This document shows positions 40,917 to 45,635 of a DNA stretch of 64,000 nt, in pieces; positions within the stretch are counted from its first letter, which is position 1, and each line of letters starts with the position of its first letter. Source of the stretch: an uncultured archaeon (GTDB taxonomy: Archaea > Asgardarchaeota > Thorarchaeia > Thorarchaeales > Thorarchaeaceae). The DNA lies in assembly GCA_964558645.1 (NCBI GenBank), contig CAZLEV010000010.1, positions 32,001 through 96,000 of the forward strand. Direction: 5' to 3'. Under the pieces are notes generated by a model. The model was given only the letters and a program-made list of their open reading frames with translations. It was not told the DNA's origin and did no database searches. A program made the translations under genes and the position numbers.

Positions 40917-41055
40917 TTCCGCCCAGAATGTAGATGCCCCTCTCCCTTAGTTCCCTGATAATCCATTCCATAGGGCGGTCACTAGCGGGTGTTGTAGTCA
41001 TGCGGCTCGTCATGTCGTATTGCAACTTCATCGTTCCAGCGAGGTCGGCTGCTGC
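40900..41055 (-). pseudogene. Degenerate mvhD fragment
   Basis: 41015-41055 is 39/41 identical to mvhD 42736-42776 and reads AADLAGTMKLQYDMTSR before decaying. Confidence 0.7.
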
Positions 41056-41292: not shown

Positions 41293-42204
41293 ATGTTGTT
41301 GAATCGGATGAAATCAAAGACAACTCTCACAGTCACATACCCCATTGTATCTGCACTCCTGAAAGCTGACGAGTTCTTAGGCTCCAAGTCTCAGGGATTC
41401 TCGCATGTCAACGAGATGCAGAAGAGGTTCTTGGAGGAGTTCTATCAGGTGAGTAGAAGTGACCTCTCACGATTCTCTCATGATGAGATTGAGAGCATTG
41501 CCTCCGCGAAGAGTGATGACATAAACAGATGGCTTGAGAAGCGGGGATTCAGCATCAAGCTCGACCCCTTCGATGAGGATGGATTTGGCGTGGCGAGCAT
41601 GCTAAGCATTCGTGGGGACTGGGCAAAGAAGGGAACCAGGTATTCAGTGAAGACCGAGGACGGAGAATACTTCCCCGGGGTGATGATGACCAACTACGGT
41701 CTTGGATATTACCGTGTACCGGAATCCAACCATATGATCATTGAAATCGAAACACGGAACGGGGACCGGGTATACCTCATGATGGTCGAGCCAGGACCCA
41801 CAGACCTGGACCTTGTCGAGCAGGTGGAAACCATCCAGAGCAAGATGAAGCCGGTTGAATCAGAATACAGTGGTGTGGTGTTTCCAAAGGTAGATCTCGA
41901 TATGAGAGGTGAAATTCACTGGATTCTCCATCTGCGGCTTCAGGTACAGGGTGAGCCCCTTCCGTACTATCAGATTGTCCAAGCGCTACAACAGACGAAA
42001 CTGAAGATGAATGAGATTGGATTCCATGTCAAGAGTGCCGTGGCTATGGGGGAAATACTCTCCGCCCCGCCGAAGAAGAAGGAACCCTATATGATTAACA
42101 GACCGTTCCTGATGTGGATCAAGAGACCCCAGTTTGCTAAACCCCTCTTTGTGGGATATCTCGACAAGGATGTTTGGAAGGATCCAGAGGATCTGGAAAT
42201 GTAG
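41293..42204 (+). CDS. Serpin-like protein (short, divergent)
   Basis: DINRWLE, GDW, FPKV, KMNEIG hinge and the serpin C-terminal signature INRPFLMWI..PLFVG. Confidence 0.75.
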   Translation: MLLNRMKSKTTLTVTYPIVSALLKADEFLGSKSQGFSHVNEMQKRFLEEFYQVSRSDLSRFSHDEIESIASAKSDDINRWLEKRGFSIKLDPFDEDGFGVASMLSIRGDWAKKGTRYSVKTEDGEYFPGVMMTNYGLGYYRVPESNHMIIEIETRNGDRVYLMMVEPGPTDLDLVEQVETIQSKMKPVESEYSGVVFPKVDLDMRGEIHWILHLRLQVQGEPLPYYQIVQALQQTKLKMNEIGFHVKSAVAMGEILSAPPKKKEPYMINRPFLMWIKRPQFAKPLFVGYLDKDVWKDPEDLEM

Positions 42205-42419: not shown

Positions 42420-42830
42420 CTACAATCTGATTGGATTCGGCCCGATCTTACGTATCTCCTCGGCGAACTTGTTGACCTCGGCTGCAAACTTGTCACCCTC
42501 GGCAGCGCTGACAAACACCATCTTCACCCGGTCCTCGTTCAGGCCCAGCTGTCCCACGAGCTTTCTCGCAAACCGCACCCGCCGTTCCGCCCCTAGGTTT
42601 CCTGTCTTGTAGGCACAGTCCCCGGGATGGCAGCCCACCACCAAGACGCCGTCCGCTCCCTCCTGCAGCGCCTTCAGGATGAAGTTGATGTCAAGGCGCG
42701 CGGTACATGGCATCCGGATGATCCTCGAGGTCACATCGTATTGCAACTTCATCGTTCCCGCTAGGTCGGCTGCTGCGTACATACACTGCATACAGCCAAA
42801 CGCGACGATTCGCATATCTTTCGGGGGCAT
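42420..42830 (-). CDS. mvhD: Hydrogenase iron-sulfur subunit MvhD
   Basis: RIVAFGCMQCMYAAADLAG, RMPCTAR, GADGVLVVGCHPGDC and VSAAEGDKF. Confidence 0.95.
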   Translation of the reverse strand: MPPKDMRIVAFGCMQCMYAAADLAGTMKLQYDVTSRIIRMPCTARLDINFILKALQEGADGVLVVGCHPGDCAYKTGNLGAERRVRFARKLVGQLGLNEDRVKMVFVSAAEGDKFAAEVNKFAEEIRKIGPNPIRL

Positions 42831-43029
42831 AGGACATCAGGCACCTGCTATCTGTCTTGAAGAGTTGTTCCATTTGCGTGGCATATAACCTTTCAGATAC
42901 TACGAGCTAAGTCTGTGTAGCCGTCATATCAGGCCCCCTCCTTGGAGAAGCAAGGCTAAGCCTCAGAATCCCTAATGGTCTTTCCGCAGCTATGGGTCTA
43001 CTCACACGACTGATTTCGGATGCATGCAC

Positions 43030-43420
43030 CGACCTGTGTCTAGTCGCCAGAGAGTGAGTGAACTCCCTCGATGACCTTCAACTCCCGTGTTCCACCCCTC
43101 TCATGACTGCCGTCACCGGCGAGAGTCAGGACCTCTCCCGACCCCTGTACACGAGCATTGTCCAGCGTGTGGCTGGAAGTGGCTTCACTCCGCTGCAACC
43201 TGATGCCATGGCTGTCAGCTGCCTTGCGGGCGTCCATGGCGGCAGTCGGCTGTTCCACGGTTCTTTCCACGGCGGGGTCGGCAGCGCTCACAGAGTCCAC
43301 AAGGGAGCTCTGCTCATAGCACTCAGCCGCGGACGATCCCGTCGGGCCTGACAGACCCTGAGACCGTTCGGACTTCACGTCAGAGGGACGCACCCTCCTT
43401 CGAGCCTTCAAGCCTGCCTG
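43030..43420 (-). ncRNA. Putative omega-RNA (reRNA) scaffold and guide overlapping the tnpB 3' end
   Basis: Helices 43060-68/43302-10, 43105-12/43240-47 and 43138-45/43274-81 plus local hairpins. The scaffold ends GGGAGTTCAC. Confidence 0.65.
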
Positions 43421-44815
43421 CTCCCGTTTGCGAGGGAACAACCAGCGCTCTAGTCCGTTCTCATCTCTCAATGAAGGGATGAGCCTGATCAATCGGCGCG
43501 CGATGTTGATGGCGCCGTTCTTGTCCGCATTGCATCGATAGCCACAGGTGTGACAGATGAACAGGGACTGCTTGGGTCTCACACCTTTGTGGCCGCATCG
43601 ATGGCAGATGATGGAGGTCCACGACTCCGGGACAGCAACGAGATGCGAGTCCTTGCCGGACACTCTCCAGCCTGCCTGGGCCAGGGAGTGCCTCAGGGCA
43701 AGGGTCACCCGTGAGAAGGACCAGCGGGCCACCATCTTCCGGAAGGACTTGGGACGCCTGCTGTTTCTGTTTGCAGACCTCCGGATGTGGGTCAGTCTGC
43801 CTATGGCAACATAGAGGTTGTACTTCTTGGAGAGCTCGAGGATGTGATCGGTGAGCTCTCGCACAAGCACCCGGTCATGGTCACGGCTGATGTTGACACG
43901 GCGACGGCTCAGTTCTCTGAGTCTTTGCATGACCTCATCATAGTCACGGCCAGCATTCCTTCTCAAATTCATCTCGTGCTGCAGGGAGTCCACCATCTCA
44001 TCATAGCGCTCGATCTGCTTCACCTTCTCGGGCTGGGTGAAGTAGCGGATATACCTCACCCGTTCCCGTGTCAAGACAGCAGAGCAGACAGCCTTATCGA
44101 TACCAAGGTCTATCCCGAGGACAGCCGGGGGCTTCCCGGATATATCCACAGGTGGGAGCCCCAGTCGTACCGAGAAGATGATCCACCATCTCTTCTGTGA
44201 GTCCTTGAGAATCCTGAGGGATGTGACCTCTCCCTCATCCAGCCTGTTCAGATGATAGGAGGAGGGGTTCAACGGAATCATGAGCCGGTCATGGACCCAG
44301 CTGTTTGTCCGTGCAGAGTCCAAGGAGTCAAGGAGGTCGAGCCAGTATTTGGTTTCCTGCTCAGGAGTGTAGACCAGCTTGAACCTACGATTGAACACGT
44401 ACCTGGGAAGCTTCCGTTCTCGATACCCCCGGGACTTCATCGGCATCTCCCCCTCAAGGGCAAGATAGCTGTTCCACATGGCCACCGCAACCTGCCGGCA
44501 CTCCTGTAGCTCGTTCAATGAGATGTTCGGGAAGCGCTCCTTGAAGTCATGGGGAACCGTCAACCTTCGCTTCGAGGGATCTTTGAACCGCTCAGCCGTC
44601 AGGGTCAGCTTCTCTAGCCTCCCCCCATTGATCCGTTTCTTCTTCTTGCCAAACAGCAGGTCCTTCTCGTGGTGGGCGATGACTCCAAGAAACGCCCGTA
44701 TTACCCGGGTGTCTCTCCCCGTCATCCGTGAGAGGCGCTCTCGCTGTCTATCAGTCATGGCGTCCCACTTCACCGGGACCTTCACACTGATGACAACCCG
44801 CTCGGAGTTCGGCAC
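43040..44815 (-). CDS. tnpB: TnpB-family RNA-guided endonuclease with rearranged RuvC-II
   Basis: RuvC-I GIDLG; RuvC-II position VAIGRL (no Glu); alternative Glu in VPESWTS; Zn finger CHRC..CHTC; RuvC-III NADKNGAINIARR. Confidence 0.92.
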   Translation of the reverse strand: MPNSERVVISVKVPVKWDAMTDRQRERLSRMTGRDTRVIRAFLGVIAHHEKDLLFGKKKKRINGGRLEKLTLTAERFKDPSKRRLTVPHDFKERFPNISLNELQECRQVAVAMWNSYLALEGEMPMKSRGYRERKLPRYVFNRRFKLVYTPEQETKYWLDLLDSLDSARTNSWVHDRLMIPLNPSSYHLNRLDEGEVTSLRILKDSQKRWWIIFSVRLGLPPVDISGKPPAVLGIDLGIDKAVCSAVLTRERVRYIRYFTQPEKVKQIERYDEMVDSLQHEMNLRRNAGRDYDEVMQRLRELSRRRVNISRDHDRVLVRELTDHILELSKKYNLYVAIGRLTHIRRSANRNSRRPKSFRKMVARWSFSRVTLALRHSLAQAGWRVSGKDSHLVAVPESWTSIICHRCGHKGVRPKQSLFICHTCGYRCNADKNGAINIARRLIRLIPSLRDENGLERWLFPRKREQAGLKARRRVRPSDVKSERSQGLSGPTGSSAAECYEQSSLVDSVSAADPAVERTVEQPTAAMDARKAADSHGIRLQRSEATSSHTLDNARVQGSGEVLTLAGDGSHERGGTRELKVIEGVHSLSGD

Positions 44816-44877
44816 ATCATTTCACCCAATCTAATAAAGTCCCGACCTGTTTTGGGTCAGGGGGAGTTCACTCACTC
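43052..44877 (-). mobile_element. Non-autonomous tnpB element bounded by 16-bp inverted repeats
   Basis: GAGTGAGTGAACTCCC (43052-67) and its exact reverse complement (44862-77); no transposase gene. Confidence 0.6.
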
Positions 44878-45000
44878 CTTTCTTGCGGAGCGTGGATGAT
44901 AATCTCCACTTTTTCTCCCGAACAATATCTAATAAAGTCATGAAGCCTATTTATGAAATCGCTTCTACTAGGTGATTATGGCTCTTAGAAGCGATTTCAT
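44829..45000. repeat. 13-bp direct repeat and 15-bp perfect inverted repeat upstream of tnpB
   Basis: ATCTAATAAAGTC at 44829-41 and 44927-39; ATGAAATCGCTTCTA (44953-67) / TAGAAGCGATTTCAT (44986-45000). Confidence 0.85.
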
Positions 45001-45116
45001 TTGAGAAATACTTGCTCCTTTATAAGGCACCTCGCTGTGTTCCATTTTACCATCTCACACTTTGCGGTTGATTCATTATCTCCCGCTCCTACTCTCCTCA
45101 TTCATCAGGAGAGTTC

Positions 45117-45635
45117 ATGATGAAGAGAGAAGTGGAACCGAGCCGCGGAATGCTAGCCATCCCGGGCTTTCCTGTGGTCCTAGTCACAGTGGACAGGAAC
45201 ATCATGACAGCAGCCGCCTTCAGCTTCTACTCCTTCAAGCCGCCGAGTGTCATGGTGGGTATCATACCACAGCAGCTGACCTTCGAGTTGATCTCACAAC
45301 GAGGGGAGTTCGGCATCAACCTCCCCCGGGCGGACCAGGTGGAGGCTGTGGACATCTGTGGGAGTATCTCGGGGCGGAAGGCTGACAAGTATGAACGGAC
45401 CGGGCTGACGACCATGAAGGGGAGCAAAATCGACAGCTACCTGATAGCAGAGTGTCCCGTGAACTTAGAGTGCAGGGTGGTCCACGAGGTGGACTTCGAG
45501 GGCACGCATCACTGGTTCATCGGAGAGATCCTGACTGCCCATGTGGACGATGAGTATGCCCGTGATGACGCTCTCATGTTCTGGGCCCGTGAGCTGCGGG
45601 GTGTGGGAGAAATCATTGTTCGTAAAGAGGACTGA
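45117..45635 (+). CDS. Flavin reductase family protein
   Basis: FPVVLV, EFGINLP, CGSISGR, ECPVNLEC and GTHHWFIGEI. Confidence 0.88.
   Translation: MMKREVEPSRGMLAIPGFPVVLVTVDRNIMTAAAFSFYSFKPPSVMVGIIPQQLTFELISQRGEFGINLPRADQVEAVDICGSISGRKADKYERTGLTTMKGSKIDSYLIAECPVNLECRVVHEVDFEGTHHWFIGEILTAHVDDEYARDDALMFWARELRGVGEIIVRKED

Follow-up and report, generated by a model that had tools for sequence, protein, structure and literature searches.

The window examined here is a stretch of 64,000 nucleotides from the genome of an uncultured archaeon. Within it, a tnpB gene lies between the two arms of a perfect 16-nt inverted repeat that are 100% complementary and 1794 nt apart, and GGTCA/TGACC is found a little further inside both arms. 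No transposase gene adjoins tnpB. What, then, are these arms for? A sequence-only reading of the locus offered three answers: the arms could be terminal inverted repeats of an element mobilized in trans, the upstream arm could be a TCAC TAM plus seed site permitting RNA-guided autoregulation, or it could serve as an anti-guide that pairs with the 3′ end of the same transcript. Comparison with homologous loci leads us to a different reading, which we consider likely, in which a tracrRNA:crRNA-like split gives both autorepression and allele-discriminating targeting by TnpB. The RNA of this TnpB is probably split and dual-guide. The features on which this reading draws are collected in Table 1.

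Table 1. Features of the tnpB locus and its surroundings, in window coordinates
Feature	Position	Strand	Basis or remark
Degraded 3′ part of mvhD, starting near codon 19 and lying downstream of cargo genes	40921-41055	-	homology
mvhD (FlpD, PF02662), docking gene of the window TnpB clade	42420-42830	-	profile, synteny
Own mvhD site of guide 2	42782-42800	+	TACAC instead of a CAT-ending TAM
Guide 2	43013-43028	-	antisense to codons 10-15 in foreign mvhD alleles
True scaffold 3′ end, ACAGGTCGG	43029-43037	-	homolog comparison
omega-RNA scaffold (5′ limit approximate)	43029-43480	-	nucleotide-level conservation, 82-locus alignment
tnpB ORF, 591 aa	43040-44815	-	homology, profile, fold
Downstream repeat arm, anti-repeat-like strand with GTTCACTCA	43052-43067	-	tip of terminal hairpin
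Predicted pseudoknot strand, CCGACC	43276-43281	-	covariation with leader handle
RuvC-III D431 codon	43523-43525	-	invariant in 14 homologs
Alternative E397 codon	43625-43627	-	invariant in 14 homologs
G339 codon, in place of canonical RuvC-II Glu	43799-43801	-	invariant in 14 homologs
RuvC-I D236 codon	44108-44110	-	invariant in 14 homologs
Guide 1	44829-44841	-	13 nt; the promoter target 98 nt upstream has an identical sequence
Leader handle ending in ACAGGTCGG	44842-44861	-	last 6 nt complement scaffold pseudoknot strand
Upstream repeat arm, repeat-like strand of leader RNA	44862-44877	-	predicted pairing with scaffold terminal arm
Promoter target of guide 1, 13 nt	44927-44939	-	contains TATA-like TTTATTA
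TAM-like CTTCAT, directly 5′ of promoter target	44940-44945	-	motif in 61 loci
Remnant of divergent intergenic/promoter region of lost aCas1 partner	44946-45027	.	paralog homology

The Inverted Repeat Lies Inside a Conserved Element

Perfect 16-nt inverted repeats occur in 9 of 1762 overlapping 4-kb windows of this genome, and a chance origin is therefore not negligible. We take the repeat to be a real feature because complementarity of its core, GAGTGAAC/GTTCACTC, and with it the upstream inverted copy, is retained at almost every one of 70 homologous loci. At most of these loci the perfectly complementary run measures 8-9 nt, and the window locus alone reaches 16 nt, the longest in the family.

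The description of tnpB as bracketed by the repeat proved wrong. Homology between loci runs past both arms, continuing ~150 bp further upstream, to 45027, and ~40 bp further downstream, to about 43011-43016, and these limits do not coincide with the arms. A search for further genomic copies of the 16-mer revealed no dispersed ends, and the flanks of the arms differ and show no target-site duplication. As judged from this comparison, the inverted repeat is real, conserved and internal to the element, and does not mark its ends.

These observations bear directly on the proposal that a non-autonomous DNA transposon, mobilized in trans, has the arms as its terminal inverted repeats. A perfect 16-bp repeat around a transposase-less gene, a multi-copy family (up to 15 matches per genome) and the frequent repeat flanking of aCas1-TnpB loci reported in PMC10691335 would all be in keeping with such an element. 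However, the conserved sequence outside both arms includes the promoter and a guide, excision at the arms would lose the promoter and cut the RNA scaffold, and full elements have a 2.8-kb partner gene outside the upstream arm. Moreover, just 8-9 nt of the arms are conserved, no target-site duplication accompanies them, and a sense-strand G-U bias (described below) fits RNA pairing. We regard this proposal as very improbable, and for these arms it is largely refuted.

Known classes of mobile element were considered as well. Assignment to TIR (DDE-type) transposons or MITEs was rejected on the position of the repeats away from the element boundaries and the lack of a target-site duplication. An IS200/IS605 or IS1341 element was rejected because no Y1 TnpA (PF01797) was found in cis or in trans in this genome, which is 93% complete. 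The layout of such elements, with a flank guide and a TAM at the left end, also differs from the one seen here, where element homology continues past the TAM. Unlike an IS200/IS605 flank guide, the guide is inverted relative to mvhD here and tandem in relatives.

TnpB Has a Rearranged RuvC Site

The protein core spans approximately aa 1-452, and the remainder, which varies in length among homologs, overlaps the RNA scaffold. Profile searches yield a PF07282 match (E 2.5e-12) and a C4 zinc finger; the guided_TnpB profile scores 91.9 bits, below its cut-off of 100. The predicted fold matches Cas12f/TnpB (Foldseek, E 1.8e-15) and has the WED-REC-RuvC arrangement with C4 zinc finger of a TnpB. A conserved RNA scaffold at the 3′ end of the gene, followed by a guide, is likewise as in TnpB systems.

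Glycine stands at the canonical RuvC-II position (G339), and the alternative glutamate E397 follows at a spacing of 58 aa, compared with ~45 aa in PMC10530073. By its residues the window TnpB is thus a rearranged-RuvC protein (D236/E397/D431) of the RIIr/TnpB2 type, an arrangement described in PMC10530073 and PMC10691335. TnpB proteins with this arrangement can cut DNA, as TvTnpB and Fanzors are active (PMC10530073). The idea of a nuclease-dead TnpB was dropped once E397 was found, and a TldR, a nuclease-dead TnpB repressor, was rejected since RuvC is not inactivated and D236, E397 and D431 are invariant. The intact residues, together with the self-avoidance of guides described below, suggest TAM-dependent, RNA-guided DNA cleavage by this TnpB.

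Close relatives are labelled Thorarchaeota. The family is present in 55 of 87 genomes of the class, with the copy numbers given above, and at 34-39% identity it extends to a single further family within the phylum. Distant homologs labelled Heimdallarchaeota (L015-L018 and L023; 36-38%) also have the rearranged RuvC site, lack the RNA motifs of the window locus and have other conserved flanks. Two tnpB fragments in G000, at the end of contig C10 (132345-132622; aa 7-105) and at the start of C28 (3-1490; aa 89-590), resemble one gene split at a contig break, which suggests that C10 may join C28.

Leader and Scaffold Are Complementary and Co-vary

In the 82-locus alignment, the tail of the tnpB ORF is conserved as nucleotide sequence. 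The stem of the terminal hairpin, tipped by GTTCACTCA, shows G-U and compensatory changes. The leader presents the complement of the terminal hairpin arm directly before a handle and guide of its own, without a scaffold. Predicted leader:tail duplexes extend ~20 bp, lengthened by the GGTCA/TGACC pair that had been noted inside the arms. Their mean energy is −23.7 kcal/mol for own pairs versus −19.2 kcal/mol for cross pairs, an advantage that is also seen inside each clade taken separately (P about 0.002 or less, a value overstated by the relatedness of the loci), and the duplex is stronger on the sense strand in 48 loci versus 21. At the window locus alone, leader-tail binding is predicted at −9.9 kcal/mol versus −5.0 ± 3.1 kcal/mol for shuffled sequences, with the leader arm partly sequestered in its own predicted stem. 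The repeat core is nearly invariant, such that most of it yields no covariation signal.

A second contact is predicted between the last six bases of the leader handle and the CCGACC strand in the scaffold, 1.55 kb away. One position of this pairing co-varies (T-A in 27 loci, C-G in 15 and A-T in 4), and the Watson-Crick fraction is 0.73 for own versus 0.38 for cross combinations. In TnpB and Cas12 RNAs alike, the conserved core includes a pseudoknot beside the guide, and tracrRNA-crRNA pairs have been proposed to derive from an omega-RNA that was split (PMC10097598).

That the RNA arms are complementary and co-vary is thus evident from the alignments. Leader and scaffold RNAs would have to be produced and processed, and the arm duplex would have to form, for this complementarity to act. 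Pairing of the leader with the 3′ end, as the sequence-only reading envisaged, therefore stands as predicted RNA pairing. The anti-guide role it assigned to the leader does not; the leader looks rather like a repeat-like handle carrying its own guide.

The Leader Guide Matches the tnpB Promoter

On the sense strand, ACAGGTCGG occurs at 44842-44850 as well as at the scaffold 3′ end, and each copy is followed by a guide. From position 1 after TAM and handle, guide 1 equals promoter sequence over at least 10 nt in 61 of the 96 loci with enough flank for this comparison. Across these 61 loci the motif before the promoter target reads T-T-[A/C]-A-T. They carry 51 distinct 12-mers as guide 1, and guide and target agree at 12/12 positions in 85% of own-locus and 0.6% of cross-locus comparisons. 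In some of the 35 loci that fail the comparison, rearrangement or the strict motif is to blame. Guide 1 and its putative promoter target therefore co-vary, and the same alignments define the guide boundaries and a TAM-like motif.

The earlier notion of autoregulation finds support, with a different boundary, TAM and target. The earlier proposal was that the guide starts after TCAC and that its TCACTC seed targets the upstream arm; in its favor, TCAC and then TCACTC are indeed present on the + strand at 44862-44877. We find this scarcely credible. Across the family these bases either do not vary or form a stem, with GTTCACTCA almost unchanged and the 3′ strand of the hairpin coming next, and long target matches are found only after ACAGGTCRG. 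Instead, guides start after ACAGGTCGG, and the putative target is the TATA region, with TTCAT as its TAM-like motif.

An alternative that we consider quite unlikely treats the 13-nt direct repeat as a second tnpB TATA promoter, duplicated and kept alike by gene conversion, with the inverted arm as an inert or mRNA-folding remnant. The identity of the two copies begins exactly after the TAM and after the handle common to mvhD and 16S guides, and spans non-TATA positions; the leader handle co-varies with the distant scaffold; and a GGTGA ribosome-binding-like motif lies between the downstream copy and the start codon. These points speak against a duplicated promoter. In its favor, the downstream copy has a TATA-like composition and lies ~25 nt ahead of the start codon, where a TATA box would normally be found. 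The T-rich motif before the target could also partly reflect promoter constraint.

By analogy with Cas9 tracr-L, in which a short guide mediates autorepression with 11 bp (10.1101/2023.03.03.530964), the most likely role of guide 1 is to keep the shared promoter region repressed, presumably by binding without cutting. ISDra2 TnpB cuts with ~12 bp of pairing (PMC10097598), and thus the 13-nt promoter match could be cleaved unless the threshold of this TnpB is longer.

Guide 2 Avoids the Resident mvhD Allele

Guide 2, TGCATGCATCCGAA, follows the downstream ACAGGTCGG and is antisense to the F-G-C-M-Q codons of mvhD, which read TTT-GGC-TGT-ATG-CAG in the resident allele. Among relatives it differs almost only at the wobble positions of F-G-C. 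None of 32 guides from 27 loci matches its own allele over 13 nt; at the window locus, the own site mismatches guide 2 at positions 6, 9 and 12. Mismatch rates against the own allele at positions 9 and 12 are 0.94 and 0.91, compared with ~0.6 expected from cross-locus pairs. The observed mismatch mean is reached by 0 of 20,000 permutations, in which P values are overstated by the relatedness of the loci. Guide 2 sequences thus spare the resident mvhD allele.

Foreign alleles behave differently. For 27 of the 32 guides, a perfect foreign mvhD allele is preceded by CAT, and the window guide matches the allele of locus L083 over 14 nt behind TACAT. A second TnpB clade at mvhD has a guide shifted by 4 nt, again after TACAT, which supports a TNCAT TAM common to the promoter site. 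A search of the own genome for a perfect TAM plus guide-2 target found none, as self-avoidance would dictate. On these comparisons, guide 2 most likely acts against naive mvhD alleles, and might do so through cleavage and homing.

The tnpB clade of the window lies just upstream of mvhD wherever the contig shows it, with one exception. This is a truncated tnpB 3′ fragment in a sister genome of the same genus (L125:5751-6500), 93% identical to the window tnpB and inverted relative to mvhD. Many mvhD loci have scaffold ends and guides without tnpB. Such orphan scaffold ends or bare handle-plus-guide units lie upstream of mvhD at L056, L060, L062, L081, L083, L084, L094, L096, L098, L102 and L116, and those guide units still mismatch the resident allele. 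Between mvhD and its usual upstream neighbors (about 55.8-61.9 kb in the window) lies variable cargo. A serpin-like cargo gene (41293-42204, +; PF00079 at cut-off), 93% identical in the sister genome, separates mvhD from its 3′ remnant.

Related Guides Match 16S rRNA Genes

A sister clade located near 16S rRNA genes carries 1-3 tandem guides that correspond to four conserved 16S sites. The matches are 12-17 nt long, each follows RAT, and the targets are uninterrupted 16S sites. The 16S gene of the window genome has ~30-nt hairpin insertions within or beside guide sites. By manual reading, 10 of 12 guide/own-16S pairs are protected by an insertion or a mismatch, and the other two match their own allele over 12 nt.

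One 16S gene (L054; G000:C10:124412-126780) has four short hairpin insertions near its 3′ end that coincide with paralog guide sites, and an apparently coding insertion of ~740 bp near the 908 region. The guides at L183 and L223 resemble 16S alleles that carry introns in other genomes, a hint that introns and guides may be engaged in an arms race. At one guide site, the TAM-proximal edge is where many tandem 16S 3′ remnants of ~100 bp begin (L237-L256; G061:C14, G053:C30, G036:C206 and G007:C54), which marks a hotspot of integration. Of 106 loci, 25 or about a quarter lie near tRNA genes, and several of their guides are presumably tRNA-like.

A Cas1-Fold Partner Accompanies Most Homologs

At least 60 of 106 homologous loci carry a large, divergently oriented partner gene beyond the upstream arm. 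Pfam and Atlas searches gave the partner no name, and Foldseek returned weak Cas1 matches alone (E 0.03) before VIA-align resolved its N-terminal part as a Cas1 fold (Z 12.9, rmsd 3.7, 179 aligned). In the predicted fold of the first 560 residues, the Cas1 helical domain and then a Cas4/RecB-like nuclease follow. This fold fits the aCas1 partner described in PMC10691335. The partner at L229:909-6074 (−), from which the folded 560 residues were taken, is a 1721-aa ORF.

No aCas1 gene is present at the window locus, and six are found elsewhere in the same genome. The region upstream of the promoter target shares 74% identity with the sequence between aCas1 and tnpB in a paralog, and the place of the partner is now taken by a flavin reductase gene (45117-45635). 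As read from this homology, the window TnpB is a solo member of the aCas1-linked Asgard family that has lost its Cas1-fold partner. Within the divergent promoter region, 44953-45000 holds a perfect 15-bp inverted repeat with an 18-nt spacer, a possible operator or hairpin. Another tnpB-like family, on contigs C27, C14 and C6 of G000, also has an aCas1 partner adjoining its copies. Its promoter sequence is apparently repeated in the 5′ region; in one example, TTGAT followed by ACACTTAAAA recurs after GATGGC. An Rfam search of the locus found no relevant family, and a scan for sigma-70 promoters and terminators was uninformative, the host being an archaeon.

With the same RNA architecture, guide 2 could instead direct the Cas1-fold partner to integrate cargo at its target in a CAST-like manner, in which case a solo copy such as this one would rely on the six aCas1 genes at other places in the genome. 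The frequency of the partner, with its Cas1 fold and Cas4/RecB-like nuclease, and the clustering of loci at mvhD, 16S and tRNA genes speak for this possibility. So do the remnant junctions: mvhD 3′ remnants start at codon 14, 5 nt from the TAM, and 16S 3′ remnants start 0-8 nt from it, nearer than known TnpB cuts, which for ISDra2 fall 15-21 nt from the TAM (PMC10097598). Conversely, mvhD 5′ stubs end variably, at codons 10-12, no clean empty/filled site pair was found among the mvhD loci and the sister genome, and site choice could be intrinsic to aCas1. The TnpB nuclease triad is also intact, whereas CAST effectors are inactive as nucleases. On balance we consider guided integration by the partner somewhat unlikely.

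A Model for Split-Guide Function

In the split-guide reading that we favor, one promoter (the TATA region at 44927-44939) would drive both tnpB and its leader RNA. In the 3′ tail of the ORF, the long scaffold would close with the GTTCACTCA-tipped hairpin and ACAGGTCGG, and guide 2 would come after these. The repeat arms would pair in trans or across the same mRNA, with the leader invading the terminal hairpin, replacing its 3′ strand and swapping guide 1 for guide 2. The leader would thereby load guide 1 much as a crRNA is loaded on a tracrRNA. TnpB with guide 1 might then bind its own TATA box through 11-14 bp beside the TAM and repress itself, while TnpB with guide 2 might recognize naive mvhD alleles and not the resident one. 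Such recognition could maintain or spread the island docked at mvhD.

A broader formulation, which we offer tentatively, is that of an array-less split system in Thorarchaeota, in which one TnpB scaffold with interchangeable guides drives islands into naive alleles together with the giant Cas1-Cas4-like partner. A self-repressing leader guide would be combined with guides specific for particular alleles of mvhD, 16S rRNA and tRNA genes, and the drive would proceed by guided integration or homing. The rRNA introns and synonymous recoding would then represent the resistance side of an arms race.

Comparison with Known Systems

The locus resembles Cas1H-Asgard-1/-2 (Altae-Tran et al. 2023, PMC10691335), compared here by its published description, in its Asgard host, in GTTCACTCA downstream of tnpB and in the Cas1-fold partner of most homologous loci. 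It differs in that the adjacent aCas1 gene is missing at the window locus. The tentative guide in that text is the variable region upstream of GTTCACTCA, which here behaves as a stem, with guides after ACAGGTCRG; a leader guide, a TAM and targets are absent from the passages of that paper used for this comparison. ISDra2 TnpB (PMC10097598) shares the TnpB/Cas12f fold, the scaffold overlapping the gene end, the pseudoknot next to the guide and a TAM ending in AT. In contrast to ISDra2, there is no Y1 TnpA here, the leader holds a second guide, RuvC-II is rearranged, and guides are built in (inverted to the neighbor gene, or 2-3 in tandem) rather than taken from host flank.

The Cas9 tracr-L and promoter-targeting CRISPR mini-arrays (10.1101/2023.03.03.530964) likewise use a short guide to the effector's own promoter, with autorepression, predicted in our case. 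The window system differs in being a transposon-type TnpB without a CRISPR array, and that study makes no mention of TnpB. TranC systems (Jin et al. 2025, as cited in PMC13639567) also have a TnpB-derived RNA split into tracrRNA-like and crRNA-like portions; here there is no canonical CRISPR array, the cis guide is kept and the trans guide would be regulatory. A comparison of the proteins gave a weak fold match. A repeat:anti-repeat duplex between separate RNAs is predicted here and co-varies. Classification as a type V CRISPR-Cas or TranC array of identical repeats was nonetheless rejected, as there is one downstream guide here and relatives have 2-3 units with degenerate handles.

Free-standing homing endonucleases and CAST homing guides recognize a conserved housekeeping site. 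As with these, the resident allele would be immune here, through wobble changes or an intron; the difference is that recognition would rest on an RNA guide on an apparently active TnpB. Neither a leader guide nor intron or allele homing is described for TnpB in the literature searched, which lay mostly outside subscription journals.

Implications

For the uncharacterized aCas1-linked Asgard TnpBs, these results provide guide boundaries, a TAM and natural targets, all of them testable, and they move the guide from where the sole published analysis tentatively put it. If the split-guide reading is correct, the locus would represent a natural tracrRNA:crRNA-like split on a transposon nuclease without a CRISPR array. 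Such a split is a predicted step toward type V CRISPR, and here it would apparently have been selected for autoregulation. If aCas1 is a guided integrase, it would form part of a new two-protein targeted integration system. Guides that spare the resident allele and are directed against conserved genes point to RNA-guided allele drive, and they may offer a selective reason for the short introns at guide-site positions of 16S rRNA genes.
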